Made by a program: the position numbers and the translations under genes. A stretch of DNA of 64,000 bases, from IMG/VR virus record IMGVR_UViG_2875713109_000001; one strand, given 5' to 3'. Positions 3,582 to 62,473 of this stretch are shown here, one piece after another. This stretch comes from a virus. Its lineage: Duplodnaviria > Heunggongvirae > Uroviricota > Caudoviricetes. How positions within the stretch are numbered: the stretch's first letter is position 1; the number at the start of each line of letters is the position of its first letter. Below the pieces are notes generated by a model. The model was not told the DNA's origin, ran no database searches, and saw nothing but the letters and a program-made list of their open reading frames with translations.

Positions 3582-3862
3582 CCCAGAAAAACAAAAACCG
3601 GCGAGAAGTTACCACGAGAACGGAAAGTAAACAAGAATACTCCCATTGACTTATATCAAATAATCAACTTTTTATAAGCTATCCCTAACTTATTGTGTAT
3701 AGCTGAAAAGTCAGAGATAAGTTCACCATCTGCATTATTTCTTAAGTTAATAGTTTATTGCTAACTTAATTTATGTATCGACTATTGATATCCATCTTAA
3801 AGTAACAATATCCCTCTGCATTATTTTTCATCACAAATAATACATCTATTGCACTACGCTCA

Positions 3863-3879
3863 CCTGCTCTAATAAATTT
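3863..3879 (+). promoter_or_regulatory. C1 repressor operator-like site upstream of immI
   Basis: cctgctctaataaattt, 15/17 match to ATTGCTCTAATAAATTT motif that recurs at more than 15 places in the window. Confidence 0.6.
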
Positions 3880-4066
3880 GTATTTTTAAGTCGCGAATGC
3901 TATCTTTTCGCATCATATTGACCTTTTAATCGTTCAGGCTTATAGTTTCGCCGTCGTAGCAAATTCTGCGACCAGGTTTGACAGCCTGAATGATTGTGCG
4001 GACAACCGCAGATTTCCGATATTGCGGTATTTTTGTGTCCGTTAAACCGCGTTACGCCCAAATTAT

Positions 4067-4143
4067 GGTGGGGCGTGATGGGGAGGCTTCGGCCTGCTGG
4101 TTTCACAATCGCCAGTCTGTCAACCCTGTCACGTCCTGCCACC
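4067..4143 (+). ncRNA. c4: c4-like antisense regulatory RNA (about 77 nt)
   Basis: Structured segment closed by ggtgg/ccacc with UUCG hairpin; internal cacaatc and caacc are complementary to gattgtg and ggttg found both upstream (3972-3999) and at the icd RBS (4146-4183), the a/b target layout expected for c4. Confidence 0.45.
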
Positions 4144-7286: not shown

Positions 7287-7328
7287 TGAATTGTTCTAAT
7301 TATAACCATGCATACTTTCAACGCCTCT

Positions 7329-7348
7329 AGTTTGCCATGAGGCAAACT
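7329..7348. other. perfect 8-bp-stem hairpin between repL and the AT-rich cassette
   Basis: agtttgcc-atga-ggcaaact. Confidence 0.4.
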
Positions 7349-7454
7349 CATAGGCGTCCTGGTAAGAGGGCACTGTTGCCAAAACTGGACGTCCCATTAT
7401 TGCAATTAATAAACAACTAACGGACAATTCTACCTAACAATAAGTGGAGTTAAC

Positions 7455-8159
7455 ATGTTGAACCGAAGAACATTTAATGTATTCTGCGATGAATCCTGTC
7501 ACCTACTAAATGATCATAATAAAGTCATGGTATTGGGTGCGCTTTGGTGCCCTGGCACTATCACAAAAAAAATTGCTAGAGACATCAAGGAATTAAAATT
7601 AAAACACAATCTAAAACCTGATTTCGAAATCAAGTGGACTAAAGTATCTGCGTCCAAGGTTGAATTTTACTTAGATGTCGTAGATTACTTCTTCAGCAAC
7701 CCAGCATTGCGCTTTAGAGGTGTTGTTGTTCCTGATAAAGAGCAACTGGACCATGCTCGATTCCATCAAGATCATAATACTTTCTATTATAAGATGTTTT
7801 TTTATGTCTTAAAAAACATAATAGAAAGTAACAACACATACAATATCTACCTAGATATAAAAGATACTTTAGGTATTGAAAAAATTGAGAAATTAAGAGG
7901 AGTTCTTCACAATGATCGCTATGATTACAATCATGAGTCGATAAACAGAATTCAACATATACGATCTCATGAAGTGCAACAATTGCAGCTAACGGATCTT
8001 TTCATTGGTGCGTTAGGCTACGTTCATCGAGGAATGAATAGCAACGCGGGAAAAATCCAAGTCATAAACAGGATAAAATCACATACAAACAGGGATTTAC
8101 TAAAAAGCACTCTTCCAACAGAAAGTAAATTTAATATTTTCGTGTGGGAGGCTCGCTGA
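7455..8159 (+). CDS. DUF3800-like protein (234 aa), AT-rich cargo gene
   Basis: ORF with GTGGAG SD; N-terminal FNVFCDESCH and C-terminal QLQLTDLFIGAL resemble the conserved ends of DUF3800 proteins (from memory, not searched); local GC far below flanks. Confidence 0.5.
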   Translation: MLNRRTFNVFCDESCHLLNDHNKVMVLGALWCPGTITKKIARDIKELKLKHNLKPDFEIKWTKVSASKVEFYLDVVDYFFSNPALRFRGVVVPDKEQLDHARFHQDHNTFYYKMFFYVLKNIIESNNTYNIYLDIKDTLGIEKIEKLRGVLHNDRYDYNHESINRIQHIRSHEVQQLQLTDLFIGALGYVHRGMNSNAGKIQVINRIKSHTNRDLLKSTLPTESKFNIFVWEAR

Positions 8160-8623
8160 TGCTTCAAATGCCAGATTTATTGTACTTCAATGGAAGTTGG
8201 CAAGAGTATATAGACGATGTATATTATGTTGTCAGAGAAGACATTTTAATCTCTAATATAACGTTTAAGGGTCTCCCTGTTCGGTTACGTTATTCACCGG
8301 AATATGATGGGAAAGAGTTCGGATTTTGGCATTTAGTATCAGAGGGAAAAATAGAAGAAGAACGAATACCTGATCTTGAACGGTGTAAGCGGATCCGCTG
8401 GATCGCGCATATGATAAGGAATTATAACCATTCCGATATATCATGTTGGTCTGAAAGACGAGGACCAACTGAAGAATGGGTAATCTGGAACGAGTGTGAA
8501 AACTACGTTGTTGTGCTATCCGCACGTAGAGACTATTGGCTTCTTAAAACAGCCTATGTTGTAACCTATAACAGTAAAATCAGAACACTCAAACAAAGCA
8601 GAAAAAGAGCGCTTGGGACATAA
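8159..8623 (+). CDS. hypothetical protein (154 aa) translationally coupled to DUF3800-like gene
   Basis: ATG overlaps upstream stop (TGATG) with GGGAGG SD; YD...(13)...LVSEGK spacing is compatible with a PD-(D/E)xK nuclease core (speculative). Confidence 0.45.
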   Translation: MLQMPDLLYFNGSWQEYIDDVYYVVREDILISNITFKGLPVRLRYSPEYDGKEFGFWHLVSEGKIEEERIPDLERCKRIRWIAHMIRNYNHSDISCWSERRGPTEEWVIWNECENYVVVLSARRDYWLLKTAYVVTYNSKIRTLKQSRKRALGT

Positions 8624-8630
8624 AAAAGCT

Positions 8631-8662
8631 GAACCCGACACATATTGCTATGTATCGGGTTC
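8631..8662. terminator. hairpin between convergent gene B and minus-strand ORF
   Basis: gaacccga...tcgggttc inverted repeat just after gene B stop, A-run upstream. Confidence 0.4.
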
Positions 8663-8789
8663 GATCGCTCTTTCTACACATGGTAGATGAGTAAGGCAAA
8701 TCTAACCGATCTACTTTAGCTTTTCAATAGCTAGCTATAACTTTCCGCACATATTCTTCTGATAATTCCAGTATGGCTGTTGGGTTTTC

Positions 8790-9086
8790 TTATGCTTTTC
8801 TGCGCAGAGGTGCACATTTATTCAGCAACAATAAATGTAATTCTTTGTTATTCCTAAGTATTTCGACACACCAATATCGTAACGTGTTCACTTCAAGTGT
8901 AGCCAGCACCTTATGTCGAAGTCCTCCCTCCCCTGCACATAACGATGACTGACATTCTGCTAAGGCACATAACCATGTATTGGCATCATAGAGAATCCAA
9001 TAATGCTCCTCTGAAATAGTTTTGCATCCAATTATTTCGAATCTTCGTTCTATCGTTTCAGGAGAGTATGAAAAATCAATTTCCAT
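8790..9086 (-). CDS. hypothetical Cys-rich small protein (98 aa)
   Basis: ORF only; weak RBS; sits between a minus-strand terminator and the cassette. Confidence 0.25.
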   Translation of the reverse strand: MEIDFSYSPETIERRFEIIGCKTISEEHYWILYDANTWLCALAECQSSLCAGEGGLRHKVLATLEVNTLRYWCVEILRNNKELHLLLLNKCAPLRRKA

Positions 9087-9126
9087 AATATGCTCAAAAT
9101 TTCGCTATACCAGCATAATTTAAGCA

Positions 9127-9152
9127 CAAAAAAAGCTCCCGCAGGAGCTTTA
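9127..9152 (-). terminator. intrinsic terminator of minus-strand structural operon
   Basis: agctcc-cgca-ggagct hairpin followed by T-run on minus strand, just downstream of ORF ending at 9171. Confidence 0.5.
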
Positions 9153-9170
9153 AAATACAAGGGATGACTC

Positions 9171-9680
9171 TTAATCCCACTCAATCCAGTTGTAAACGAT
9201 ACGAAGTGACGGGCGCACAGCGGCAGTCACATCTTCGGTACTAAAGTCGATTGCATCACTGTAGATTTTGCAGTCCAACATTTCAATTGTTGTAGCAGCT
9301 TTTGTCACAGCGTTAACCCCGGAAGATTTGGATTCAGGGGTCGCAGCCATCGTGATATCAACATAGTCCTTCGCCGCAATGCGATCTTTAATGAACTGAA
9401 GAATATCGCCTTCGATAGTCTCCACGCACTGGACCTGGATTTCCCCGGAGTTACGGATTGGACCGTGCTGGTTGAACTTCACACCATTCGGACCATAGTC
9501 CTCCACATCCTCGCGGGTCATTTCAGGAATTTGCGACGTGCGAACCAGTACGCTGATATCTTCATGGCCTGCAAAAGTGAGCTGGAATTCAGAAGATACC
9601 AGTCGTTCGCCTTTGGCCGCGTTGGCAGTATAGCGGCCCTTAATAAATTTACGGTTTCCCTTAGTGTTATTGTGCCCCAT
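9171..9680 (-). CDS. virion structural protein (169 aa), tail-tube-sized
   Basis: Last gene of co-oriented structural array; size typical of myovirus tube proteins; no motif confirmation. Confidence 0.35.
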   Translation of the reverse strand: MGHNNTKGNRKFIKGRYTANAAKGERLVSSEFQLTFAGHEDISVLVRTSQIPEMTREDVEDYGPNGVKFNQHGPIRNSGEIQVQCVETIEGDILQFIKDRIAAKDYVDITMAATPESKSSGVNAVTKAATTIEMLDCKIYSDAIDFSTEDVTAAVRPSLRIVYNWIEWD

Positions 9681-42041: not shown

Positions 42042-42251
42042 ATGGCTATCGCTGCAAGTTACACCATGCATCTCTATTGTGATTGCCTCCAGTGTACAGA
42101 TGGCAAATATAAGTCGCCAGACTTCGGTGAGTATATAGGTACGTCATGGGCTGGCTGTGCAAAAGAGGCGCGCAAGGATGGCTGGCGAATAAGCAAAGAC
42201 AAAACGCGTGCTTTTGCGCCCGGGCATAAAGTTTTGAGGATTAACAAATGA
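42042..42251 (+). CDS. small Cys-rich protein (69 aa)
   Basis: AAAGGAGAG SD; CDCLQC...C pattern. Confidence 0.45.
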   Translation: MAIAASYTMHLYCDCLQCTDGKYKSPDFGEYIGTSWAGCAKEARKDGWRISKDKTRAFAPGHKVLRINK

Positions 42252-42964
42252 CCACTATAACCAAAGAGCGACTGCTGACAATCAAGCAGTGGCGCGAAAC
42301 ATACGGACCTGGTAGCAACGTTGTACTGCCAGCAGAAGAAGCGGAAGAACTGGCACGAATTGCGCTGGCATCGCTGGAAGCAGATCCAGTTGCTTATATT
42401 TTCAAACATCCGGCCGGGAAATTATTCTGGGCTTTAACGGATGAAAGCAATAAAGAGCAAGCGGACGTTATTCCTGTTTATGCTGCCGCGCCTGCGTCGG
42501 TTGTGCCGGATAATGCATCAGAGCCTCTTGCTTATGCTTACAAAGAGCTTACGCCTGAGATTATGCGCAACCATTTAGCTGTATTCGAGCGATATGGAAT
42601 AGCCCCAAACGATAGCTCTACCACAATTCAGGCACTGCGAATCGCGCTGGATGGCATAGAGCGGAGCGACGCCATGCTTCATGGTGCCGAACCTGTAAGC
42701 CAAACTTACAAGTTGAACCAGCTATCGGGCAACTCTCCGGCAACTCCGGATGGTTGGATAAGCTGTAGTGAGCGAATGCCGAATACCAAAACAGCCGTTC
42801 TTGTTGCCGTGGAGTTTGACAGGAAAGGTGACTGGCGAATGAAATGGGCTACTTACATCCCCGGGCATCCTGACGCTAATGATGGGTGGATAATTCCTGG
42901 TGCGTCGTGGAAACCGTCACACTGGATGCCGCTACCAGAACCGCCGCAGGAGGTGAATCAATGA
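42248..42964 (+). CDS. DUF551-like domain protein
   Basis: C-terminal GWISCSERMP...W...HWMPLPEPP resembles DUF551. Confidence 0.45.
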   Translation: MTTITKERLLTIKQWRETYGPGSNVVLPAEEAEELARIALASLEADPVAYIFKHPAGKLFWALTDESNKEQADVIPVYAAAPASVVPDNASEPLAYAYKELTPEIMRNHLAVFERYGIAPNDSSTTIQALRIALDGIERSDAMLHGAEPVSQTYKLNQLSGNSPATPDGWISCSERMPNTKTAVLVAVEFDRKGDWRMKWATYIPGHPDANDGWIIPGASWKPSHWMPLPEPPQEVNQ

Positions 42965-43028
42965 GCTGGCCTGAAGCATTCACCACGGTAGGAATTGTGA
43001 TGGCGGCAGCACTGGGTTTGTATTCAAT

Positions 43029-43280
43029 TTGTCGCTGGTGGTAACGATGGGAAAAATAACTTTTGTAGTCGAATTTGAGGATGGCAAAGAGCCACCTGTT
43101 AGCGCCAATCTTGATGTTGCTGGTGGCAGGCTGGTTTCGGTTCTATTTGGTGATTACCGCGACGACTTCTTTCAGCCTGAAGAAGTTGATGTAGTGCGAG
43201 AAGCATTAAACGAGCTAAGTGTTGATAACGATGATGCTCATGCGGAAATCATCAAAAAAATGGAACTGCTAACTCACTAA
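43029..43280 (+). CDS. hypothetical acidic small protein (83 aa)
   Basis: ORF only. Confidence 0.35.
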   Translation: MSLVVTMGKITFVVEFEDGKEPPVSANLDVAGGRLVSVLFGDYRDDFFQPEEVDVVREALNELSVDNDDAHAEIIKKMELLTH

Positions 43281-43458
43281 ATTATCAATTATGGTGCTAT
43301 CACCTACGACACCGAGAGAAAATTTATAATGTCAAAAGTAAATGTTTTGATTTTTTCAGCAATTGTTGGCTTTGGTTTTACTGCCGGAGTGCAGATTTAT
43401 ATTGCGTGGGAAAAAATCATCAACTACGCATGGAGTTGTTTTATTAAGTGAGGTAAGT

Positions 43459-43752
43459 ATGTGGAGAGGTAATAGTCATGGCAAAAGCCAGATGATACTT
43501 ACCGAATATCAGTTTGACCATAAAACCAATAAATCACGTTCAGTATATTTGCTTCGGCACAATAGCCGCGTAAGGAATACCGTGCTGGAGCAAAATCTGA
43601 CTGTTGAAATGGATAATTACGGGGGCTTCAAGCCAACAATTTCGCTTGATGATTTTCCTCGTGGTTTAAGCGAAAGAGAAGCAATGCTGAAATTAGCAGA
43701 ATGGCTACAAAGATTAAGCATTGCTATTGAAGATAACTGGTCTGAACCTTAA
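43459..43752 (+). CDS. hypothetical protein (97 aa), AT-rich gene
   Basis: GTGAGG SD before ATG 43459; low GC. Confidence 0.4.
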   Translation: MWRGNSHGKSQMILTEYQFDHKTNKSRSVYLLRHNSRVRNTVLEQNLTVEMDNYGGFKPTISLDDFPRGLSEREAMLKLAEWLQRLSIAIEDNWSEP

Positions 43753-43758
43753 ATTTAT

Positions 43759-44133
43759 ATGATGACACTAAAACATTTTCTTGACCGCCCATTATGGGCG
43801 GCAGCCGCAGGCTATGACTTTAATTATATGGATTGCATGTCTTATACCGCCAATGCATACGACCATTCCTTCAGTCTGCTGTTTAATTCTTTAAGAATAT
43901 TGCCGCAAACAGAAGTTGGAGAGCTTCATTTATGGCTATTGGGCTTTATCGCGGCTGGAGTTGGTATTGCTGTATGGCCTTTTATTTTCTGGCTGGTGGC
44001 TGTTGTAGTGTGGTTTAAGTGCAAGACGTACCGGAAAAAGTATTTCTTAGGTGATGGAATGACTGATATTGCCAAAATGAACATTGAAAAATGGACTAAG
44101 GAATGTGAAAAGAAATGGCGCAAAAAGAAATGA
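43759..44133 (+). CDS. membrane protein (124 aa) with basic C-terminus
   Basis: TM LWLLGFIAAGVGIAVWPFIFWLVAVVVW then KKWRKKK. Confidence 0.45.
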   Translation: MMTLKHFLDRPLWAAAAGYDFNYMDCMSYTANAYDHSFSLLFNSLRILPQTEVGELHLWLLGFIAAGVGIAVWPFIFWLVAVVVWFKCKTYRKKYFLGDGMTDIAKMNIEKWTKECEKKWRKKK

Positions 44134-44774
44134 CTACTCTAACGACAGCATACTTACAGCAATTGGTATTTTTTGCAGGCGAGGCTACTTGTCATCCTGA
44201 CGCAAACTATTTATTGGAATTTGAGAGGTTAGCGTCACCCGGTATCGTTCTGGAACTGGCCCAACAGGTGCTGGCCTTAAGACAAAAAGAGCAACATGAA
44301 AGTAATACGTGTAGATTGAACTTTGAGCAGTGGCTGGAACAGCAACGCGGAAAAATCGATGTGGACTGTGGTTGTGTGTCTACTGAAACATTCATGCACT
44401 GGCTGCGGGTAGCTTACGAGGCTGGCAACTATCCGGATATTCCGGATAGTTCGGTGCCAGGGCCAGGAAAGGGCGTCACCGGTGAACGTATCCGCATTAA
44501 GCCGCATGTTTATCGCGAACTGGTTAACCGTCTCCACGATACAGCGATCAAGTGTGCTGGCACCCAGCAATTACGAGAAAGAATTAGCCGTGTTTTGGGC
44601 GACGTTATTAAGCCAGACCATCATAAACAAGCCGAGAAAAGTGGCCTGGAAAGGTGTCACCTTGAGGCGGCATTAAACATTAACCCGGGGCATACGCTTG
44701 GCATTATTGATGCACTATTGGTTCATAAGATGGCCAGGGCTTTATTGCCGCTGGTAGGGGGCAATGACAACTAG
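44115..44774 (+). CDS. hypothetical protein (219 aa)
   Basis: ORF overlapping upstream gene end. Confidence 0.4.
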   Translation: MAQKEMTTLTTAYLQQLVFFAGEATCHPDANYLLEFERLASPGIVLELAQQVLALRQKEQHESNTCRLNFEQWLEQQRGKIDVDCGCVSTETFMHWLRVAYEAGNYPDIPDSSVPGPGKGVTGERIRIKPHVYRELVNRLHDTAIKCAGTQQLRERISRVLGDVIKPDHHKQAEKSGLERCHLEAALNINPGHTLGIIDALLVHKMARALLPLVGGNDN

Positions 44775-44858
44775 GAAAAAATCGCATTACTGGTGGCAAA
44801 GCCATAACTACTGATACAATATTTCTAGGTTAAAGATCTGGCATTAGGTAGAGATAGC

Positions 44859-45323
44859 ATGTTTCTTCATATCAATCCCGATTGGGCATCAGCTATTGCG
44901 GCATTTGGGTCAGCAATAGCTGCTTTTATTAGTTTGCGCACAAGTAAAAATCTTGGATTATTCGATAAGGAAAAATTTTATAGTGAAGCATTGATAAACT
45001 TTGCTGATAGGGCAAATAAAATAGCAACAGGAAAAGCTGGATCAGACTGGGATGTTAATGACGCAAGTAATATAATTCTTTCACTAAATGCCGCAAAAGA
45101 AACTATTGAAAGTGCGCCAAAACCTATTCGAGAGAAACTAAAACAATATTACAAACATAATCTTTGCCATGAGATCATAACTGAATTAGAGGCTCACTCT
45201 CCCCCAGATTCAGTAATTGTAAGAGAACCATCAGAGTATGAAGGCAAGATCATGGGATTGTGGGATGAGATTAAAATATTTCTGGGTTATACAGTGGTAT
45301 CAGAAGCAGACCTTGAAGATTAA
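44859..45323 (+). CDS. membrane-anchored protein (154 aa), AT-rich gene
   Basis: N-terminal hydrophobic segment WASAIAAFGSAIAAFISL; low GC relative to neighbours. Confidence 0.4.
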   Translation: MFLHINPDWASAIAAFGSAIAAFISLRTSKNLGLFDKEKFYSEALINFADRANKIATGKAGSDWDVNDASNIILSLNAAKETIESAPKPIREKLKQYYKHNLCHEIITELEAHSPPDSVIVREPSEYEGKIMGLWDEIKIFLGYTVVSEADLED

Positions 45324-45430
45324 AGTTTGGTGTGACCACATCATTTCATCAATGATGCCCGAAGTGGGGAGTTTGACGATTGTCCGGTGATTTAAGCTGC
45401 AAAGTGCTGGTGCTTTATGCTTGTGAAGTT

Positions 45431-45458
45431 TATAATTGTGTACACATAACGAGTACAC
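45431..45458 (+). promoter_or_regulatory. phd-doc promoter/operator
   Basis: TATAAT at 45431 followed by palindromes tgtgtacaca and gagtacac just upstream of phd. Confidence 0.55.
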
Positions 45459-45467
45459 GAGGTGTTT

Positions 45468-45689
45468 ATGCAATCCATTAACTTCCGTACCGCACGCGGC
45501 AACCTTAGCGAAGTGCTCAATAATGTTGAAGCAGGGGAAGAGGTTGAAATCACCCGCAGAGGCCGTGAGCCAGCAGTAATTGTCAGCAAGGCTACTTTTG
45601 AAACCTACAAAAAAGCGGCGCTGGATGCTGAATTTGCATCCCTGTTTGACACCCTGGACTCCACCAACAAGGAACTGGTTAACCGATAA
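45468..45689 (+). CDS. phd: Phd antitoxin
   Basis: 73 aa [39 protein letters not shown]... matches recalled P1 Phd. Confidence 0.9.
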
Positions 45690-46069
45690 TGAGGCATATA
45701 TCACCGGAAGAACTTATTGCGCTTCATGATGCGAATATAAACCGCTACGGCGGCCTGCCGGGAATGTCAGATCCGGGTAGGGCTGAGGCCATTATCGGGA
45801 GAGTTCAGGCCAGAGTTGCCTACGAAGAGATCACCGACCTTTTCGAAGTCTCCGCCACCTACCTGGTGGCTACAGCGAGAGGGCATATATTCAATGATGC
45901 CAATAAGCGTACCGCGCTAAACAGTGCGCTGCTATTTCTACGCCGTAACGGGGTGCAGGTATTTGATTCACCAGAACTGGCAGACCTTACCGTAGGGGCT
46001 GCGACCGGAGAGATATCTGTATCTACTGTCGCCGCCACGTTACGTAGATTGTATGGTTCTGCGGAGTAG
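45689..46069 (+). CDS. doc: Doc toxin (Fic-fold kinase)
   Basis: 126 aa, ATG overlaps phd stop; [19 protein letters not shown] core motif. Confidence 0.9.
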
Positions 46070-46073
46070 ATTA

Positions 46074-46253
46074 ATGGCACGTAAATACAACAAATTGTCC
46101 CGTAGAGCGTTAAAGATGCTTCTTGATGGCGTGAGTCGCCGCGAGGTAAAGCAATACCTGGTTGGTAAGCAAATTGGTGCCAGGACCGCTATTGCTGTGT
46201 TATGCCGTCAGGAAATGGTTGTGCTTAAACAGAAAATGCCGGGCAGCAGATAA
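46074..46253 (+). CDS. small basic protein (59 aa)
   Basis: ATG overlapping doc stop; K/R-rich. Confidence 0.3.
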   Translation: MARKYNKLSRRALKMLLDGVSRREVKQYLVGKQIGARTAIAVLCRQEMVVLKQKMPGSR

Positions 46254-46280
46254 AGCCAAATCAGTGATGAAAGGTGTGAT

Positions 46281-47324
46281 GTGAAAGCCGTAATTACTCC
46301 CTTTGTACAAAAAGAGCTTGGCGTCGCCACATTCAAAGTGGATCAGGAAGTCAGAAAGCTGGTGGAGGCTGGCCGTAAATTTATTATGGAGCCGGTGCCG
46401 CGTGAGTTAATCGAGCACATGGACGACGGCCTCGTTGTTTCCGAGCAAACTATGGCAACAAATGAGGCGTTGCAGCCGTTTTTTAACAGCGATGAACTGT
46501 TTCGCCGTATTGGTGGAATTGACGCGCTGGTGGCGTGGTTGCGCAGGAAAGAGGGGCAATGCCAGGCCGCAGATCGTAGCTGGTGTGACAACCATATTGT
46601 CCACGCTGAACGAGACAACAGCGCGGTGTTGTTGTGCTGGCATCACGATAATCATTACCGGATGCGTGGTTTTAATGAGCTGAAAGAAACGCTGCATAAT
46701 AATCGCGTTAACTGGATACTGGATGTCGCTCGTCAGGAAATGGGCCTTTCTGATGGTCATGATTTAAGTATTCAGGAGCTGTGCTGGTGGGCTTTCATGC
46801 GCAACATGATCCACCTCATGCCGGAAGAAGTCTGCCGTATATCAATAAATAAGGTGAGGGCTGCAACGCAGGATAGCGGACCTCTGAAAGAGGCGGATAT
46901 TCGCCCGTATGACGATCGCGCTACAGCATATGTTCAGATGATGGAAGAACGCGCCGCGCCGATGCGTGCAAAAGTATGCCCTGTGGATGTTGACTCCGAC
47001 CCTGGCATGGCGCATTTCAAAATACCAAAACTGCAATCGCTAAAATTACCTGAGTACATGGACTTTGTTGCTTCCCGTCCATGCTGTGGGTGTGGAGCTG
47101 CGGGAGCTGGCGCTCACATTACGCCTTATATCGTTCGTCATAGTCGATTATGCGCGCATGACATTTACGCAATTCCTCTGTGCCAGTCATGCCAGCGTGA
47201 TATTGAGCGTGACCGCGATAATTGGGAGAAGACGCACGGCAGGCTGGCGATGCATCAACGATTGTTCTTTGATTACGCGCTTGGAGTCGGCGTTATCACA
47301 AGTCACTCGTCGAGCGTTAGATAA
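46281..47324 (+). CDS. Cys/His-rich protein (347 aa)
   Basis: GTG start with AAGGTG SD; clusters CWHHDNHY and PCCGCG...CAHD...PLCQSC suggest metal-binding or HNH-like module. Confidence 0.45.
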
Positions 47325-47325
47325 A

Positions 47326-47342
47326 ATTGCTCTAATGTATTG
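47326..47342 (+). promoter_or_regulatory. C1 operator-like site upstream of lpa
   Basis: attgctctaatgtattg. Confidence 0.55.
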
Positions 47343-47412
47343 CTATTTCTTTAATCGAGGGTATTATATTCGTCGTTGATTAGTTGACATGGGCTAATCA
47401 GTAGGTGACAGG

Positions 47413-47865
47413 ATGTTACTTAACTGGCAGGGACGCCACTTCATGGAAATAAATCACTCACGAATTACATCGTATGAGATTGCGGATTACATGATCCGCA
47501 CTAAATCTCTTCTATCAGCGAAAGAACTCGCAGCAATCCTTGAAAAGGAATACCCGCATCTGGATGTCGATAAGCGCGATGTTTATCTGCGCTTAAAGGC
47601 TATCGCTGTGTCTAAGTATTCGTCTGTTTTGATTGATGACAGTACACGCCCACGTAGATTTCAGATCCACTCTCTGAATCCTGAATTCTTTCGCCGCAGC
47701 CGCGCTCCGCGCCGGTTTGATGAAAAACTCCAGAACGAACTCTATATGACGCAGGACGAAAAGGAACGCCGGGAGCACCAGCCTTGGGTAATGGCGCGTC
47801 AACTTTTCAATAAGGTGGCCCGTCAGCACCGTCATTACGGTAATGCCACATCCGCACGTATCTGA
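47413..47865 (+). CDS. lpa: late promoter activator Lpa (tentative)
   Basis: 150-aa ORF immediately upstream of pacA and downstream of a C1 operator, as lpa is in P1; AGGTGA SD. Confidence 0.5.
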   Translation: MLLNWQGRHFMEINHSRITSYEIADYMIRTKSLLSAKELAAILEKEYPHLDVDKRDVYLRLKAIAVSKYSSVLIDDSTRPRRFQIHSLNPEFFRRSRAPRRFDEKLQNELYMTQDEKERREHQPWVMARQLFNKVARQHRHYGNATSARI

Positions 47866-53525: not shown

Positions 53526-53763
53526 AATTATGCCTCACTGTATTGACAACACAGAGCCTGAAGCTCTGACCTACTGTTTCACCCATGATCCATGCTGGGG
53601 TAATCTAACAACATTGCGCTGTGTGTAAGATGAGCAATGCATAGCTGTAATGCCGTTGTATAAGGTTTCCCTGTTTGCTCATTTCCTTCTGAGCCGCTCT
53701 ACAACGCTGAAGACACATTAAATAGTGAATCCAAAGTCGTATTACGTAACGGCGGCAAAACTA

Positions 53764-53780
53764 TAATTTATTAGAGCAAT
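53764..53780 (-). promoter_or_regulatory. C1 operator-like site (immC)
   Basis: taatttattagagcaat, reverse complement of operator motif. Confidence 0.65.
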
Positions 53781-53846
53781 TGTCAAACAACTATGAAAAA
53801 CAATCCAGTTTTTAGCTGGTGGAGTGGGATTTTTCTCTCTAAATTT

Positions 53847-53863
53847 ATTGCTCTAATAATTAT
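53847..53863 (+). promoter_or_regulatory. C1 operator-like site (immC)
   Basis: attgctctaataattat. Confidence 0.65.
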
Positions 53864-53906
53864 TGATTTTTGTGCACAGCTGGACGTAAACTCCTCTTCG
53901 GACCTG

Positions 53907-53940
53907 ATAACTTCGTATAGCATACATTATACGAAGTTAT
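53907..53940. other. loxP site-specific recombination site
   Basis: Exact 34-bp ATAACTTCGTATA-GCATACAT-TATACGAAGTTAT. Confidence 0.97.
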
Positions 53941-54129
53941 CTTAAGGGTTATTGAACATGATCAATTTACCTGTAAATCCATACAGTTCAATACCTTATC
54001 AGGTCAAATAGTGATCACTTGATCATTTGATCAAGGTTGCGCTACGTAAAATCTGCGAAATGTTGGCAGTGTTAGTGCTCCAGATTTCGCGTAGCGCACT
54101 TAGCACCACCAATCAATCAGAGGTGAAAA

Positions 54130-54351
54130 ATGGGATATTCAGCTGCTAAAGTGTCCACTCATCTTGAGCTTGAGAAAAACCGTGGTTACTGGCGGGCAAA
54201 AGGGTTTGATCGTGATAGTTGTCAACTGTCATTATCGCGCGGTGAAGAGAAAATAGAACGCACGCGCGGTCGCTGGCGTTTCTATGACGAGAACCATAAA
54301 CAGGTAAAGGCAGAGCCGATCCTGTACACTTTACTTAAAACCATTATCTGA
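54130..54351 (+). CDS. hypothetical small basic protein (73 aa) between loxP and cre
   Basis: GAGGTGA SD 6 nt before ATG; ends 7 bp before cre start. Confidence 0.3.
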   Translation: MGYSAAKVSTHLELEKNRGYWRAKGFDRDSCQLSLSRGEEKIERTRGRWRFYDENHKQVKAEPILYTLLKTII

Positions 54352-56749: not shown

Positions 56750-57391
56750 ATGGATAAGAAAATATGCGTTGTTTCAATGAGCGTCGGCAAACCGGCGTCA
56801 ATGACTGCTGCATGGATCAACAATGAGCTGATAATGGCTGAGCGGACCAGCTACCCTGAACGCCGCCGCGATATGGAACTCCAGCTGCTGCGCGAATTGC
56901 GAGAAAAAGAGGAAAAGGGTTTTATCGTGCTGGTGGAAGAGGAAAACAGCTTTATTACCGGTCGAGTTGGCCAGCGTGTAAGGTTGCGTGATCCCTTCAT
57001 GAACGGTAGACCGGTACTGATTGAAGCAATGCAGATTTACAAGGAATTGGAACGCCAGAAAGCGATCAAGTTACCGCGCAAGGAATCCGGCAAATACATC
57101 CTCCACCAAAGCATCTTCGATTCCGAACATGACAAAAAAGGCGATGAATTTTTCAACATCAACTGGAGCGAAATAACGACAGAGCACGTTCTGACGTTGT
57201 TATGCTGCTTCGCAACGGAATACAACAACGTTGCAAACTCCGACTACATCAGGGCAATGGCTGGAGAAGTTGAGCCACGCCAGGAACCATCGTTACTAAG
57301 CCCACTGATTAACATAATTCGCGGCACACAGAGACTTGCGGAAAAAAGCGTTCCACATGGAATCTTAACTGGAAAGGGAAACTATTTTTAA
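56750..57391 (+). CDS. mat: Mat-like protein (tentative)
   Basis: ORF between ref and res as P1 mat; ATG 56750 preferred over upstream track start. Confidence 0.5.
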   Translation: MDKKICVVSMSVGKPASMTAAWINNELIMAERTSYPERRRDMELQLLRELREKEEKGFIVLVEEENSFITGRVGQRVRLRDPFMNGRPVLIEAMQIYKELERQKAIKLPRKESGKYILHQSIFDSEHDKKGDEFFNINWSEITTEHVLTLLCCFATEYNNVANSDYIRAMAGEVEPRQEPSLLSPLINIIRGTQRLAEKSVPHGILTGKGNYF

Positions 57392-57432
57392 CGACCTGAG
57401 CGCCACTTCTTTCAGGTCGTGTTGGATGTCAT

Positions 57433-57457
57433 AAAAAGGAGGTTTTCACCTCCTTTT
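57433..57457. terminator. bidirectional terminator between mat and res
   Basis: aaaaaggagg-ttttca-cctcctttt. Confidence 0.55.
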
Positions 57458-57466
57458 AAACTGGAA

Positions 57467-60379
57467 TTATGGTAATGCGCTCTTGATTAACTGATAAATA
57501 TCATCATTAGCAAACTGCGTTTTGAATTCAACTTTAACAGACTGACTTATTTGATTGAAAAGCGCCTGGGCATGTTCAATTTTCTTTTTTTCTTCAAGCC
57601 GTAAACTATCCTTACTATCTACGTTTTTTGTTTCAATGATAAAGTTAAGATAATCACCTTCTGCTGTTTTTACAACATAAGCAAAATCGGGTGAGTAAGT
57701 GTATCCACCAGCTACCGGGATCTTAATAGAATTCTTCGGTATCTTTGAAAAAACAACAACAGACTGGATCTCTCTATCTGTTATATTACGCCTTTCAAGC
57801 TCTGAATCATAAAAAACCTCTTCAAAAAGATAAGTATCTAATGGTGCTTTTGAATTATCCTGTAATACACCAAGATCACTTGATAATACCTCGTCTAGAG
57901 GCTTACCATCAGCATTTGTGAACTTTGTGGGATGAATTGAACCCGAAATCAAATTATATCCGAGGCTGAATTTGTTAAACGAATTGTTCAACAAATACTT
58001 ACTAAAACCAGATTTAATTTTTCTGATTGTTTGAATATTCAGGTATTCAGTGATATTAATAGTGTCTTTTATATCACAAAAAACTTTATGTAAAGTATCG
58101 TGTTTAACAAAAATAGTCTGTGATAAGTTATCGAGAAACTCTCGATAACTCATTGTGTTTAGCTTAGCAAAGTCATCGTCATCACTAACAATGCTTTTCG
58201 ACATTGCCATATCATTGTGGATGTAAATTTTATCAATGCGAGTATGAACGCCTGATTTGGTAAATCGTTCTGTTTCTTCGAGCATGAATGACTTGAAAAT
58301 GGATAAAAACTCATTTTCACTGTTTATTTTGTACTCAATCACCGCTTTTTGATTGATTAATTCCCATAGTTCTTTCAGCTCACTGAACTTACCAACACGC
58401 ATTTTAGTGCGTCTTTTTCCATCAGTAGCTTTTTTGATTTTACCTGGTTTCACTCCTATAGGGAATGCTGCTGGATATTTGGATTTTAAGCGGCTGTAGG
58501 CATCTGAATCTTTGAAATTATCATTTTCATCAATGATTTCATCATTGAAAAGTTCATTCATTAGTGCTCTGGATGAAAGCTCAGGATACTGAGCCCTGAT
58601 TTGTTCCTTAAGCTCTTGAGTAAACTTACTTGGAACCCTTTCTTTGAAAGAACTCTCATTGACCTCTTTAACAAGTGAGTCAACAAAATCCTTTTCTGTA
58701 AAATCGACATAATATTTAAGGGTAAAATTGCGGTCTTTCACTCGACACATGTATTCATTCACAGGAAGACGCAAACCGCGCCCTACCTCTTGAAGCTTGG
58801 ATGTGGTACTACCGCTCGAACGGAGCTTACAGATCTGAAAGACATTAGGATTATCCCATCCCTCACGCAACGTCCATTTGGAGAAAATGAAACGACGTGG
58901 ATTATCTAAAGACAGCAAAAGCTCTTTGTCATGAAGGATTTCGTTGATTTCCTTCTCGATTTTATCATCCTTATCACTGTTATCTTTTGAAAAATAACCG
59001 CCATGAACGGAAGATATATCTTTAACTGTTTTTTCAAGATAGTTACTATAAAACTCATCTTTTTCTATTTTTAACAGTTCATTAGCTTCTGCCAAAACAT
59101 ATTCTTCGAACTTAGCTTTCAAACTTCCGGCAATATTATTACCGTCACGATAACCTTCAATATCATCAATAAAGAAAAGAGTAAGAGGCTTTATGCGTGG
59201 CCTTTGTGTCAGAAACTCTTTTTCTAACTTAAAGTGTTCTTTGATAGCTTTCCTCATCATGCTGTCAGCAAGTGTCTGATCGTAAGAATAGGGGTTTATT
59301 GAGCAACCAATTTTTAGCTCAATACCATTACTCAACACTACTGTATTCTTGCCTAAGGCATCAAGAGTTAAATCGTGAATAGCACTATGTGTCTTAGATA
59401 GAGATTCACCTTTTGTTAACTTAAATAAAGTTTTCTTGTTATTTTCATTTAGCTCAAATGTAACTTCTTCCCCATCAGATTTAATGAACTTTAGGTTGGC
59501 GTCACCATCACCAACAATATCCTCAATGTACGCATCAATACCTTTAACAAGGTCTTCATTAAATGCATCCACAGCTGTAAGTCGATAAACTAAATTCTTA
59601 TAGCCTTCACTAAAGGTCGCACCGTAGCGGATAATATATTGAGCATTAAACTTCTCTATATTTTCCCATGTCTTTTTACCAGTAGGAAATTTATGTGGTT
59701 CATCAATGATAATGAATGGTTTTACCGCACCAAGAGCTGAAAAGGGAGAATCAAAATGATTGTCAAGCAAGCCAACATCATAAGTGGAATTTAAATTCTT
59801 AGAGTGAATCATTCCCGTGTTAATAACAAGAACGTGTATATATTTCTTATTGAAATTACTAGCTTCAACAAAATCATGTATAGCTTGAGGCATATACGAT
59901 TTTGTGCTTTTACCGGCATTTTTCTGACTTTCAACAACGTAAGTCTTTATTTCACGCTCATAATCATCTCTAAAGTGTTCTTTTAACGCATCGCTTTTCA
60001 AAAAGTTCACTGTTCCAGCTTTGATCGATAGAGTAGGAACAATAATGATAAACTTATTAATGCCAAATGATTTGTTCAGATCAAAAATTGTTTTAGTGTA
60101 GGTATACGTTTTACCTGTACCTGTCTCCATAGAAACATCGATTACGTTGCTTCCAGCATCGTAATTATTTTTTACATGTTCAATACCATTGAGTTCCTGA
60201 ACTTTTTTTATATTTTTATAGTATTGCTGTTCAGTAAGCCGTAATTCTGGATTAACTAACAGGCGAATAGAAACATTATCCTCCTGATGAGATGTCGCGG
60301 AAACAAAAACGTTCATCACCGCATCGACACCTGCTTTCTGATGCGGTAAGTTCTTTTCGAATGTGAACCCTTTTGACAT
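57467..60379 (-). CDS. res: type III restriction enzyme Res subunit
   Basis: 970 aa as in EcoP1I Res; helicase motifs METGTGKTYTY (Walker A) and IIIDEPHKF (DEAH-like); AT-rich. Confidence 0.9.
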   Translation of the reverse strand: MSKGFTFEKNLPHQKAGVDAVMNVFVSATSHQEDNVSIRLLVNPELRLTEQQYYKNIKKVQELNGIEHVKNNYDAGSNVIDVSMETGTGKTYTYTKTIFDLNKSFGINKFIIIVPTLSIKAGTVNFLKSDALKEHFRDDYEREIKTYVVESQKNAGKSTKSYMPQAIHDFVEASNFNKKYIHVLVINTGMIHSKNLNSTYDVGLLDNHFDSPFSALGAVKPFIIIDEPHKFPTGKKTWENIEKFNAQYIIRYGATFSEGYKNLVYRLTAVDAFNEDLVKGIDAYIEDIVGDGDANLKFIKSDGEEVTFELNENNKKTLFKLTKGESLSKTHSAIHDLTLDALGKNTVVLSNGIELKIGCSINPYSYDQTLADSMMRKAIKEHFKLEKEFLTQRPRIKPLTLFFIDDIEGYRDGNNIAGSLKAKFEEYVLAEANELLKIEKDEFYSNYLEKTVKDISSVHGGYFSKDNSDKDDKIEKEINEILHDKELLLSLDNPRRFIFSKWTLREGWDNPNVFQICKLRSSGSTTSKLQEVGRGLRLPVNEYMCRVKDRNFTLKYYVDFTEKDFVDSLVKEVNESSFKERVPSKFTQELKEQIRAQYPELSSRALMNELFNDEIIDENDNFKDSDAYSRLKSKYPAAFPIGVKPGKIKKATDGKRRTKMRVGKFSELKELWELINQKAVIEYKINSENEFLSIFKSFMLEETERFTKSGVHTRIDKIYIHNDMAMSKSIVSDDDDFAKLNTMSYREFLDNLSQTIFVKHDTLHKVFCDIKDTINITEYLNIQTIRKIKSGFSKYLLNNSFNKFSLGYNLISGSIHPTKFTNADGKPLDEVLSSDLGVLQDNSKAPLDTYLFEEVFYDSELERRNITDREIQSVVVFSKIPKNSIKIPVAGGYTYSPDFAYVVKTAEGDYLNFIIETKNVDSKDSLRLEEKKKIEHAQALFNQISQSVKVEFKTQFANDDIYQLIKSALP

Positions 60380-60381
60380 GA

Positions 60382-62322
60382 TTAGTTCCTTACCACTAAA
60401 TCTAACTCAATAGATTTTTTGTTAGCATAACTTTTTAGCGCCTCATTAAGCTCCCTTTGTTTTGCACTTTCAAAGTTACAACCATAAAACACGACTTTGT
60501 TTGGGGCAAAATCTTCATCTGAATCCAGCTTTTGGAGCAACGCTTTCAATGCTTCGCTAGTAAAATTAGGTGCAATCAAATACAGACGGCCATTGCAAAA
60601 GTGTGCTGTATAGCCACTAAGATCAACATCTTCAATAGGTGTTGTTAACAAGCTACCATCATATACACACCATGTAGTCAATAGGGCATCATACTGTTCA
60701 GGCGTTAATACCGCATCATCAAAGAATGTATGATTAGTGAGCGTAAGTTCAGACTCAACTTTTGCTCTAAAGTCATCAATAGTATGAATCACTTTGAAAC
60801 CTATTTTAGCCGCATTATCACTTGTGGTTGTGCTTTTTTTAAATACCTCCTGTATCCTTTTTTTTGTTATTTCAAAAATAGATCTATAGCCAAGAGAATA
60901 GGCATTCTTTGTTTTATTTATAACTTCATCTTTTTGTATGCATATAAAATTCCTACAGCCTGAATCTTTTTCATTTAAATATGCAACAGCTTCTGCTGTC
61001 GTACCAGAGCCAGCAAAAAAGTCAAGAACTAATGAATCCTTTTTTGTTCCTATTTTTACAAGATCGGTTATAAGAGGAACAGGTTTTGGTCCTTCAAATA
61101 ATTTTGCACCTAAAAGATTTTTAAGCTCAGTTGTCGCCGTGCTTGTACTATATTCAGGTTTATACCAAATTGATTTTGGCTTTTTAGTTGGTAGCTCTCC
61201 AAGAGCAGGCCGCTGTTTTTTATAGATATTTTTACCATCTTTTATATCTATTACTATTAGATTATAAAACTCATCATTTATTTTTTTCTTTCCCCACGAC
61301 CATGAAAGCTCTTCACCCGTAGGGCTTACTGGGTAAAGTACATAGTCATCTTCGTTAAGAGGTTTATCATCATCTGTTACATAAACCTTATTTTCTGAAT
61401 TGATGAATACCGGAAACCAACCTTTTGGTCTTGATTTTCTAGAAGCATCTTGGCCAGTACGCTTTAATGTATCAGCTCTTTTAAATAGCCCATATTCATC
61501 TTCATCCCACTCTTTTTCAACTTCACTTTCATCAATATCGAATTGCCCCAAACTACAAACATCTTTGTTTTTAGCGTATACATATATATATTCATGCGTA
61601 TCTGAAAAGCCAAAGTTATCATGATTGCCTTTGAGATTCATGATTGTAGGGAGTTTTGCAACAAAATTACCTTGCCCAAATACTTCGTCGCATAATAATC
61701 CCAACTGTTTATCTTCGTTATCGTCTATGGAGATGAATATTACTCCATCCTCTTTTAAAAGTTCACGTGCAATATAAAGACGAGGATAAATGAATGTCAG
61801 CCATGCACTATGACTGCTTGAACCCTTGGTGGTAAATTCAAGTATGCGGTTAGCCTCATCAAGCTCGATACCTGCCAGTTCAGAAAGCTGTTCTGGTGTA
61901 AACTTGCGATCATCGTTATAGACGAATCCATCTTTACCCGTATTGTATGGTGGGTCAATGTAAATCATATTCACCTTTTCAGCATAAGCATTAACCATAT
62001 GCTTCAATACTTCGAGGTTATCCCCTTTGATTAACAGGTTTTGACTGTTCTTGTTCTCTTCTTGTTGGTTATGTGTTTTATCTTCTGCCAACAACGTTTT
62101 CGGTGGTAGATTGGCCAACAAACGGGCATAAGATTTACCCAGCCAGTTTAAACTGTATGATTCTTTAGAGAGTTCAACCTCCGATGCTCTAATAATCTCA
62201 AGCAATTTTTCTTGAATGAAGGCTCCGTTTTTATCAAAACACTGTGGGAAATTAGCTTTCAACACAGCCAGTTGCTTGCTGTTAGCCGTTTCTACTTCGG
62301 AAAAAATCGTTTCTTTTTTCAT
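60382..62322 (-). CDS. mod: type III modification methyltransferase Mod subunit
   Basis: N6-adenine MTase DPPY (IYIDPPYNTGKD) and FxGxG (VLDFFAGSGTTAEA); start at MKKETIF gives 646 aa (track ORF begins 21 nt upstream). Confidence 0.9.
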   Translation of the reverse strand: MKKETIFSEVETANSKQLAVLKANFPQCFDKNGAFIQEKLLEIIRASEVELSKESYSLNWLGKSYARLLANLPPKTLLAEDKTHNQQEENKNSQNLLIKGDNLEVLKHMVNAYAEKVNMIYIDPPYNTGKDGFVYNDDRKFTPEQLSELAGIELDEANRILEFTTKGSSSHSAWLTFIYPRLYIARELLKEDGVIFISIDDNEDKQLGLLCDEVFGQGNFVAKLPTIMNLKGNHDNFGFSDTHEYIYVYAKNKDVCSLGQFDIDESEVEKEWDEDEYGLFKRADTLKRTGQDASRKSRPKGWFPVFINSENKVYVTDDDKPLNEDDYVLYPVSPTGEELSWSWGKKKINDEFYNLIVIDIKDGKNIYKKQRPALGELPTKKPKSIWYKPEYSTSTATTELKNLLGAKLFEGPKPVPLITDLVKIGTKKDSLVLDFFAGSGTTAEAVAYLNEKDSGCRNFICIQKDEVINKTKNAYSLGYRSIFEITKKRIQEVFKKSTTTSDNAAKIGFKVIHTIDDFRAKVESELTLTNHTFFDDAVLTPEQYDALLTTWCVYDGSLLTTPIEDVDLSGYTAHFCNGRLYLIAPNFTSEALKALLQKLDSDEDFAPNKVVFYGCNFESAKQRELNEALKSYANKKSIELDLVVRN

Positions 62323-62473
62323 ATCCATTTTAAACCAGATCATTTAGCAACAAAGCGCCGCCTCCCCAGCCCGTTAGAGCCAGAAGTTGTGGCACTATCA
62401 CTATCTATATGTTTGAAGAATCGTGCTTCTTTGAGCGATGCTCGGTGAGCAAACAGCCATAATTTGGGGAAGT

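Follow-up and report, generated by a model that had tools for sequence, protein, structure and literature searches.

The stretch at 43290-45323 of the window, by which we mean the whole 64,000-nucleotide DNA analyzed, is composed of several parts and does not constitute a single functional unit. It forms the distal 2 kb, at the 3' end, of a rightward array of about 5 kb (40.2-45.3 kb), which occupies the hypervariable region 8 (pmgT to humD, between pap and phd) of P1-like phage-plasmids. As judged from its sequence, the window is itself such a phage-plasmid. The array is a patchwork, in which modules have been swapped at gene boundaries with the early regions (ea/exo-xis and nin) of lambdoid and N15-like prophages. 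The best explanation of the region 8 array, which we consider probable, is that it consists of dispensable early-lytic accessory genes, not of genes for lysogen defence.

Over the 2.9 kb compared, E. coli pVPS18EC0801-3 (CP063718.1) is 100% identical to the window, and the flanks of the pap-phd interval align with P1 at 96-97% identity. The interval itself differs in every relative sampled: the window and six relatives (P1, vB_EcoM-813R1, pEC190329_2, pRHB09-C18_2, an E. albertii plasmid, and an E. marmotae plasmid) present seven architectures in seven elements. The variable hotspot that the initial annotation proposed to look for across related phage-plasmids is thus borne out, and a locus conserved without variability is contradicted, as the pmgU-phd interval varies. 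The segment from pmgT to humD has been published as variable region 8 of the P1-like group, and low GC was associated with variable regions in the same study (PMC9603915). There, gene content was scored against P1 genes, and the extra genes of the window are not described. All the region 8 genes of P1 tested by CRISPRi are non-essential, as are those within the deletion survey (PMC10695390). The window shares with P1 the slot between pap and phd-doc, the C1 operator at its head, and the pmgT-like (orf195) and pmgU-like (orf219) genes; with region 8 of P1-like elements in general, it shares the low-GC patches and a content that varies from relative to relative. In contrast to P1, it carries about 3.4 kb of lambdoid-type cargo between pmgT and pmgU, and a single orf154 cassette in place of pmgV through humD.

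The two drops in GC content reported initially, at 43290-43760 and 44800-45320, are real, with values of 0.376 and 0.365 versus a window mean of 0.467 (sd 0.05). They fall within the lowest 8% and 6.5% of 470-bp intervals, about 2 sd from the mean, and are not the deepest of the window. The cluster taken as a whole is no more than mildly AT-rich, with a GC of 0.413 (15th percentile), and its largest gene, orf219, has 48% GC. The first dip corresponds to orf40 and orf97, followed by orf124, while the second is the 570-bp orf154 cassette. The cluster of small genes is real: all the ORFs are present on the + strand at close spacing, and orf40, orf97, orf124, and orf219 are separated by gaps of 6-7 nt or joined by a 19-nt overlap. 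The position just upstream of the phd-doc addiction module (45468..46069, + strand) is likewise accurate, as the next genes are phd (45468-45689) and doc (45689-46069), with their own promoter region retained.

The array is headed by a promoter-like site and a C1 operator (40191..40235, + strand), the equivalent of P1 PpmgT/OpmgT, formerly Op88. The promoter-like hexamers lie at 40191-40220. The operator at 40219-40235 (ATTGCTCTAATAAATAT) has one mismatch to the consensus, and its position agrees with the P1 annotation. C1 operator-type sites are far more numerous in the window than expected (15 observed versus 0.4 expected), and the next one after 40219-40235 does not occur before 47326. From 40.3 to 45.9 kb, terminator prediction on the + strand gave two weak stem-loops and nothing strong. 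The number of promoter-like sites in the region is not above the shuffle expectation. An Rfam scan of 39000-47500, in which an antisense RNA of a type I toxin system facing orf40 might have appeared, detected no RNA family; a GcvB match at 40262-40345 was sub-threshold (E 0.43). The genes pmgT, pmgU, hot, and humD are not named in the main text of the P1vir transcriptome paper (PMC8201110). In this arrangement, the C1-controlled promoter probably drives a joint transcript of orf40, orf97, orf124, and orf219 once C1 is missing, as in infection or induction, and C1 control probably extends to the distal genes. Since the C1 operator heads the array, orf40-orf219 should be repressed in the lysogen, and this predicted repression makes them a poor fit to lysogen-expressed exclusion. 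The operon logic instead points to early-lytic accessory roles.

The first gene behind the operator, orf195 (40414..41001, + strand), encodes a PmgT homolog (BLASTP versus P1 PmgT, E 4e-58; phrog_874). It is followed by cargo of the lambdoid ea-region type (40988..42964, + strand), comprising an Ead/Ea22-like gene, tandem small basic ORFs, and a DUF551 gene (Pfam Ead_Ea22, E 6e-38; DUF551, E 2e-21), and P1 has no match over this segment. A conserved module then spans 43.0-44.1 kb. Its first gene, orf77 (43047..43280, + strand), encodes an acidic small protein that is annotated in relatives and matches phrog_3876 over its full length (E 5e-53). The orf40-orf97-orf124 part (43329-44133) is present in 310 PLSDB records, compared with 578 for pacA, the marker used to count P1-like plasmids, and thus in about half of them. 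Relatives of this part reside in lambdoid and N15-like prophages, within their early regions. The orf40 gene (43329..43451, + strand; GC 34%) encodes a 40-aa single-helix hydrophobic peptide matching phrog_5525 over 40/40 residues (E 1e-24), with homologs of about 50% identity beside eaa/ea22 in lambdoid phages. It is separately exchangeable, as some relatives match only from 43453. Its KD19 of 1.83 classifies it as membrane-spanning on simple scales rather than by a dedicated topology predictor. The orf97 product (43459..43752, + strand; GC 40%) is a full-length member of the phiKO2 Gp43 family (phrog_1258), 60-70% identical to prophage proteins of Klebsiella, Salmonella, and Citrobacter. A kinship between orf97 and a 79-aa gene upstream of distant orf124 homologs was dropped because it came from one pairwise comparison with E 0.017.

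The initial annotation described a transmembrane protein with a poly-Lys tail at 43759-44133, which corresponds well to orf124 (43759..44133, + strand; phrog_2638). This 124-aa membrane protein contains a 31-residue hydrophobic core (residues 57-87) and a Lys/Arg-rich C-terminal tail ending in KKWRKKK. With a KD19 of up to 2.38 (residues 53-89) and a dG19 of -0.48, it is classified as membrane-spanning on the same simple scales. Its family is narrow (16 clusters); homologs with 51-56% identity are located between RNase_T and Dam genes, in prophages whose gene content is N15/phiKO2-like, and in the E. albertii and E. marmotae plasmids a 58-aa gene takes its slot. The last gene before the cassette, orf219 (44115..44774, + strand), shares its first 19 nt with the end of orf124 and encodes a long form of P1 PmgU. 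Residues 114-219 align with PmgU residues 1-106 at 88% identity (E 6e-68), and the nucleotide match to P1 within the gene covers 44414-44755, while the N-terminal 113 residues have no P1 counterpart. Matches to phrog_60 and phrog_924 extend over short shared segments only. A relationship to DUF551 as a paralog was rejected, since orf219 showed no resemblance to the window's DUF551 protein.

The second dip is a single-gene, low-GC cassette of 570 bp (44756..45325, + strand): homology to all relatives ends at 44755 and restarts at 45326. Its GC content is 0.37, compared with 0.46-0.49 in the flanks, and it replaces pmgV-upfMNO-hot-lxr-humD of P1. At the right junction, a 70-bp humD 3' remnant (45326..45395, + strand) comprises the last ~69 nt and the stop codon with a 1-nt indel in an alignment of P1 and two plasmids. 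One recombination event installed the cassette, leaving this humD stump. A further 79 plasmids match only the remnant part; among the matches listed, all are annotated as S24 peptidase or DNA-repair. The cassette was found in 9 PLSDB plasmids, of about 570 that are P1-like; of 5426 complete E. coli genomes, 10 have it, in each case on a plasmid. The E. albertii and E. marmotae plasmids carry it at 99% identity, with flanks at 93-97%. The lateral acquisition suggested initially is supported, and for orf154 it shows in the clean junctions, the GC3 of 0.24, and the presence in 9 of ~570 P1-like plasmids. A promoter-like site with an extended -10 element lies inside the cassette (44793..44820, + strand; GTGGCA-16-TGnTACAAT, a consensus match only). 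No terminator was found between orf154 and phd, so that a transcript from this site would read towards phd-doc. Neither a P1 late-promoter element nor a LexA box was found near the cassette, and control by LexA or a late promoter was dropped because there are no such sites.

The gene itself, orf154 (44859..45323, + strand; phrog_1779, E 1.5e-62; GC 0.363, GC3 0.239), encodes a 154-aa protein predicted to fold as a helical bundle; its N-terminal helix is weakly hydrophobic, and its C-terminal tail, EADLED, is acidic and conserved. The AF2 model has a pLDDT of 86.6, and the N-terminal helix reaches only 59-70. This helix is rich in Ala, Gly, and Ser (maximum KD19 1.49; summed Hessa-type dG +3.9). 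Most homologs have KD values of 1.6-2.5, with dG19 ranging from -1.2 to +4, and one homolog is fused to a polytopic membrane domain. Accordingly, of the two membrane proteins proposed in the initial annotation, orf124 stands, whereas the N-terminal anchor of orf154 is weak here, although more hydrophobic in most homologs, and orf40 had been missed as a candidate.

A word-indexed protein search with orf154 returned its own cluster only, and an exhaustive HMMER search was needed to recover the family, which comprises 21 clusters among 1.84 billion representatives. All ten homologs placed in context lie among temperate-phage genes, nine of them in recognizable early regions, and each is co-oriented with its upstream neighbor. 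The gene for Pol III theta is next to or near the homolog in 4/10, with Ead_Ea22, DUF551, and Dam near others, and at two loci the distance to the theta gene is 0-4 bases. Clear intrinsic terminators follow three of the four homologs examined, and all four lie 7-20 GC points below their flanks. A conserved partner gene was considered and dropped: a Cys-rich small downstream protein, which we take to be a TraR/DksA-type zinc finger, is common to two loci only and was regarded as regional synteny.

Searches for known functions covered exclusion and Abi families as far as models exist in Pfam, NCBIfam, and PADLOC. PADLOC-DB v2 gave no matches to the seven window proteins at E<=1, and only scattered single matches (E>0.002) to the 21 members of the orf154 family. 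The best Pfam E value for the orf40-orf154 proteins was 0.019, with all hits below the curated cut-offs, and the Pfam scan of the 21 members gave nothing consistent. Nothing was found in an NCBIfam scan or in PDB sequence searches. The two confident or fair models (orf154 and orf97) yielded no informative fold match, and a Foldseek search of BFVD returned nothing at E<0.1. On the sequence evidence, a link of any of these genes to phage exclusion or Abi is unsupported.

The early accessory reading may be compared with the exo-xis/ea and nin accessory genes of lambdoid phages, including Ea22, orf60a, orf61, orf63, and ea8.5 (PMC3824215, PMC8614690). The array resembles them in its Ead/Ea22 and DUF551 genes, in the orf40 homologs beside eaa/ea22, in the orf154 homologs situated in ea or nin regions near theta, and in being made of small dispensable genes in early operons. 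It differs in that the carrier is a P1-type plasmid prophage and the control is by C1 instead of CI/N, and homology to a characterized exo-xis protein was found for none of the five proteins of the stretch. By likeness to the exo-xis/nin genes with which they travel, the products of orf40-orf219 would be dispensable early accessory proteins acting on the host cell, two of them in the inner membrane. The orf154 gene may additionally use its own promoter-like site, and its product would be a helical bundle whose N-terminal helix is marginally membrane-active and whose acidic tail may serve for docking. Some considerations count against this explanation. The promoter-like site, the terminators of homologs, and the deviant GC content are hallmarks of morons, which makes expression of orf154 in the lysogen possible. 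In addition, exclusion factors are common among the small membrane proteins that temperate phages encode.

The initial annotation suggested laterally acquired single-gene functions of the exclusion or Abi type. One or more of the genes, most plausibly orf154 and less certainly orf40 or orf124, would then be expressed from the plasmid prophage and act at the inner membrane. This view draws on these same features: the low GC and GC3, the hotspot locus, the promoter-like site belonging to the cassette itself, and products that are membrane or membrane-proximal, including the homolog fused to a polytopic domain. The small membrane exclusion or Abi proteins of coliphages, SieB, T4 Imm and Sp, P1 SimC, and RexB, are similar in being small, phage-encoded, located in accessory regions, and provided with one or two hydrophobic helices. 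However, no sequence or fold similarity of the window proteins to them was detected, the database scans yielded only the scattered family matches mentioned above, and no known defence gene was seen next to any of the ten orf154 homologs. Moreover, orf40 and orf124 lie inside the operon headed by the C1 operator, and the predicted C1 repression is opposite to what exclusion by a lysogen needs. Moron-like anatomy, that is, an independent promoter-gene-terminator unit (PMC3594210), speaks for the exclusion view as far as the terminators after 3/4 homologs and the deviant GC are concerned. The cassette indeed displays the moron trait of a substituted gene with deviant composition (GC 0.37, GC3 0.24) and has an upstream promoter-like site, but in the window orf154 is without a terminator, and its homologs are co-oriented with early lytic operons, at two loci within 0-4 bases of the neighboring gene. 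On balance, an exclusion or Abi factor appears unlikely. Similarly doubtful is a broader proposal, in which the orf154 family would be an unrecognized membrane-associated effector that docks onto a host protein through its acidic tail, as a one-gene anti-phage or replication/host-takeover factor; that such an effector would, in addition, be read through into phd-doc here is, taken together with it, also improbable.

A tentative possibility, which we rate above the exclusion view, is that these are early counter-defence or host-takeover factors that aid establishment or replication in particular hosts. The C1 control of the array, as read from its operator, would suit such a role, as would the dispensability and patchy distribution of the genes, the position of homologs in early operons near Dam, DNA methylase, theta, DinI, and Ead/Ea22, and the conserved acidic tail of orf154, which suggests docking onto a host protein. 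Nevertheless, such neighbors are generic for early regions, and no similarity to characterized anti-defence proteins was found, a weak test without a dedicated anti-defence library. The proximity of phd-doc, which had been taken as a functional hint, looks instead like a hotspot position. That orf154 belongs to the addiction module as its third component, or modulates it, could be read from its location directly upstream in every close copy examined, including the E. marmotae element with its different backbone, and from the lack of a terminator between them. Yet all the copies have the same junctions, so that one insertion event spread with its flanks; about 570 other P1-like plasmids have phd-doc without orf154; none of the ten distant homologs has a called phd or doc neighbor; and the phd promoter region is retained. 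We regard this tie as extremely improbable. Morphogenetic genes or non-functional leftovers are likewise a very unlikely reading, despite the label 'putative morphogenetic' that the P1 annotation gives to pmgT, pmgU, and pmgV and despite the humD stump, which indicates that decay does happen here. The three pmg genes are non-essential in P1 (PMC10695390), and the genes are absent from many infectious relatives. Furthermore, each ORF matches a PHROG profile of fitting length from a conserved family, and the orf154 and orf97 families have conserved motifs and confident or fair models.

The stretch is unlikely to be a new defence locus. The practical value of the analysis is mostly corrective: the hotspot had already been described, and its genes belong to a stock of accessory genes that lambdoid early regions share. 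Should orf154 or the two small membrane proteins confer phage resistance or modulate the host, each would offer a compact single-gene tool. In a small plasmid lineage, a member of the rare, well-folded orf154 family now stands where the SOS-mutagenesis gene humD, along with hot and lxr, used to be. In the reference phage P1, pmgT and pmgU look like the remnants of a ~3.4-kb deletion from a longer array, which is still carried by about half of the natural P1-like plasmids.

A 2.9-kb query (42900-45800) is 100% identical to the E. coli plasmid pVPS18EC0801-3 (CP063718.1, IncY, 93 kb) and matches many P1-like phage-plasmids with 96-99% identity across parts of its length, as well as phages such as vB_EcoM-813R1, SJ46, and RCS47, also in parts and at 96-99%. 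The genes to the left (pap) and right (phd, doc, pdcA, pdcB, lpa, pacA) of the array, the rightward gene series at 40.2-45.3 kb, follow the P1 order. In the E. albertii plasmid p06-3542, a gene for a TnpB-family RNA-guided endonuclease is inserted between lpa and pacA (L016 8634-9845). The ORFs described in the initial annotation are present in the window, and its GC drops were confirmed at 43290-43760 (0.376) and 44800-45320 (0.365), compared with a window mean of 0.467. With a standard deviation of 0.05 across 470-bp windows, the two tracts rank in the lowest 8% and 6.5%, respectively; the dips are real, not extreme, and the window has another five tracts with GC equally low or lower. Low-GC tracts elsewhere (≤0.38 in 470-bp windows) include 3301-4121, 7221-9191, 53541-54191, and 57281-62351, some of them deeper. 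The description as an AT-rich cluster holds for the two dips, but 43290-45323 as a whole is just mildly AT-rich (GC 0.413) because orf219 (44115-44774) has 48% GC.

Comparison with P1 by blastn aligned window positions 39001-40469 and 40731-40846 with pap and the 5' part of pmgT, 44414-44755 with pmgU, and the sequence from 45326 onward with the end of humD followed by phd-doc. The orf195 product (40414-41001) is a PmgT homologue (E 4e-58), and the whole of P1 PmgU is 88% identical to the C-terminal 106 residues of orf219. Between pmgT and pmgU, the window holds approximately 3.4 kb of genes that are extra relative to P1, comprising Ead/Ea22, two paralogous small basic ORFs, DUF551, orf77 (43047-43280), orf40, orf97, orf124, and the N-terminal half of orf219. 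About half of the natural P1-like plasmids retain the orf40-orf124 block and, with it, at least part of this longer array. In reference P1, pmgT and pmgU look like products of a deletion of about 3.4 kb (window 40414-41001 and 44115-44774). The 3' tail of pmgT in P1 corresponds to window ORF 44482-44676, an alternative reading frame in that DNA (P1 locus L002, 2584-3653). The small basic ORFs form a tandem pair of 58 and 62 aa at 41506-42040, both beginning with MKNRKAK and 37% identical (E 5e-10), and a third basic ORF lies just upstream of them.

A C1 operator (40219-40235; one mismatch to the consensus) and a promoter-like site overlap immediately downstream of pap, in the exact position of P1 PpmgT/OpmgT. 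The next C1 operator lies at 47326, ahead of lpa. The plus-strand genes at 40414-44774 are tightly packed, with small gaps or overlaps throughout: orf97 follows orf40 after 7 nt, orf124 follows orf97 after 6 nt, and orf219 overlaps orf124 by 19 nt. No strong intrinsic terminator was predicted on this strand. Neither a P1 late-promoter element nor a LexA box was found near the distal end of the array, and an Rfam scan of the region returned no RNA family. Judging from these sequence features, we infer that orf40-orf219 would belong to a C1-repressed early operon.

None of the proteins encoded in 43290-45323 matched Pfam above threshold, NCBIfam, PADLOC, or PDB sequences. The gene orf40 (43329-43451), which was absent from the initial annotation and is annotated in vB_EcoM-813R1, encodes a 40-aa hydrophobic peptide that matches a PHROG profile of 40 columns end to end (E 1e-24). 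Its homologues of about 50% identity adjoin eaa/ea22 genes in lambdoid phages. Some relatives align from 43453 onward only, without orf40, which is therefore a separately exchanged module. Two promoter-like hexamer pairs on the minus strand (43456-43520) are antisense towards orf40; they probably arose by chance, since promoter-like sites in the region are no commoner than in shuffled sequences. Over its full length, the orf97 product (43459-43752) belongs to the phiKO2 Gp43 family, whose members have a constant length of 97 aa and are widespread among prophages, including those of Klebsiella, Salmonella, Citrobacter, and Erwinia. In its predicted model (pLDDT 76), a beta meander of four strands packs against a C-terminal helix; a structural search gave no specific neighbour. 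The orf124 product (43759-44133) is, as initially described, a predicted transmembrane protein with a lysine-rich tail, with an unambiguous hydrophobic core at residues 57-87 and the C-terminus KKWRKKK. Its family is narrow (16 clusters); homologues (51-56%) are flanked by dam and a gene for an RNase_T-family exonuclease in prophages whose gene content is N15/phiKO2-like, and a 58-aa gene replaces orf124 in the E. albertii and E. marmotae plasmids.

The proposal that the locus is a variable hotspot proved correct across related phage-plasmids, whose gene content differs here. The segment 42922-44134 is common to other relatives at 98-99%, with differing DNA on both sides. Using pacA as the marker for P1-like elements in PLSDB (578 records), the orf40-orf124 block was found in 310 records (nearly complete in 249) and the orf154 gene in nine. 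Of 5426 complete E. coli genomes, 10 carry orf154, each time on a plasmid. The interval pmgT..humD has been published as one of eight highly variable regions of P1-like phage-plasmids (PMC9603915), so the hotspot is already known; low G+C is associated with such regions, hot-lxr (printed 'hox-lxr') being named among them (PMC9603915).

Lateral acquisition, as initially proposed, is borne out for the orf154 cassette by its sharp junctions, its deviant composition, and its rarity among P1-like plasmids. The cassette is 570 bp long (44756-45325; 37% GC), and homology to every relative is absent in between. On the left, homology ends at 44755, six codons ahead of the orf219 stop; on the right, it restarts at 45326, two bases past the orf154 stop and within the last ~69 nt of humD, a stump that survives with a 1-nt indel (pseudogene at 45326-45395). 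The cassette contains orf154 (44859-45323; GC3 0.24) and a promoter-like site with an extended -10 (44793-44820); no terminator was found within it. Compared with the E. albertii and E. marmotae plasmids, identity is 99% for the cassette and 93-97% for its flanks, with unchanged junctions, which indicates a single acquisition that would have spread later through recombination in the flanks. Beyond doc, the backbone of the E. marmotae element differs: in pRHBSTW-00605_3 (L017 6816-11611; also L025), the orf219-orf154-humD stump-phd-doc module is followed by integrase, dut, and DUF2829 genes, not pdcA, pdcB, and lpa. The cassette gene fills the slot where relatives have hot and humD. With humD reduced to a stump and lxr, hot, and the LexA box lost, the plasmid lineage lacks P1's humD, lxr, and hot at this locus.

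A word-indexed protein search with orf154 retrieved its own cluster only, whereas an exhaustive HMMER search of 1.84 billion representatives (E<=0.001) yielded 21 clusters with 28-41% identity. The family shares a hydrophobic Ala-rich N-terminal helix, A-x-R/K-A-N, P-D, and W-x(5)-F-F motifs, an invariant Trp inside D-W-x-F-x-x-A-A-N-I, and an acidic C-terminal tail (D-x-D-L-x-D). The confident AlphaFold2 model (pLDDT 86.6) shows one long helix that leaves the hydrophobic segment and enters a compact bundle of helices. The N-terminal anchor initially assigned to this protein is weak: in the window copy, the Ala/Gly/Ser-rich helix WASAIAAFGSAIAAFISL falls below the usual transmembrane thresholds, and most homologues have higher scores. 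One homologue (P0012, 288 aa; L018 5001-5867) fuses an N-terminal domain of several hydrophobic helices to an orf154-like domain, which supports a membrane location for the family; membrane association of orf154 is plausible.

All ten homologues placed on contigs lie among temperate-phage genes and are co-oriented with their upstream neighbour, and nine are in recognisable early regions. Some are nin-region genes, located between O/P and Q; others belong to ea regions, with recombination genes on one side and integrase on the other. Ead_Ea22, DUF551, and Dam or DNA methylases are among the neighbours. A Pol III theta (hot) homologue is directly adjacent or two genes off in four cases (five loci), at a gap of just 0-4 bases in two loci. 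The theta-associated loci are in lambdoid prophages (L011 4028-5495, L020 1221-1939, L026 4001-4824, L027 4001-4824, and L030 1293-2022). The homologues are 7-20 GC points below their surroundings in all four loci checked, three of which have a clear downstream terminator. No conserved partner gene was found, and no defence genes were seen near the ten homologues.

The initial annotation read the placement beside phd-doc and the composition as signs of exclusion or Abi-type single-gene functions. The adjacency is best explained by the location of the hotspot, and none of the tests run gave positive support to such functions. For orf40 and orf124, they conflict with the predicted C1 repression; for orf154, they are unlikely. 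In its single-gene form, deviant composition, and promoter-like site, orf154 partly resembles morons (PMC3594210), an anatomy by which it may possibly be expressed in the lysogen. The best-supported interpretation is that 43290-45323 forms the distal end of a dispensable early array under C1 control within the known hotspot, built from modules that circulate among temperate elements of lambdoid, N15-like, and P1-like types. None of the tested P1 genes of the region is essential for plaque formation (PMC10695390). In function, the nearest parallel is with the accessory genes of the lambdoid exo-xis/ea and nin sets, which are transcribed early and modulate phage-host interaction (PMC3824215, PMC8614690). 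The stretch is an ordinary, already charted variable region of conserved hypothetical genes, in which one rare cassette is of interest.
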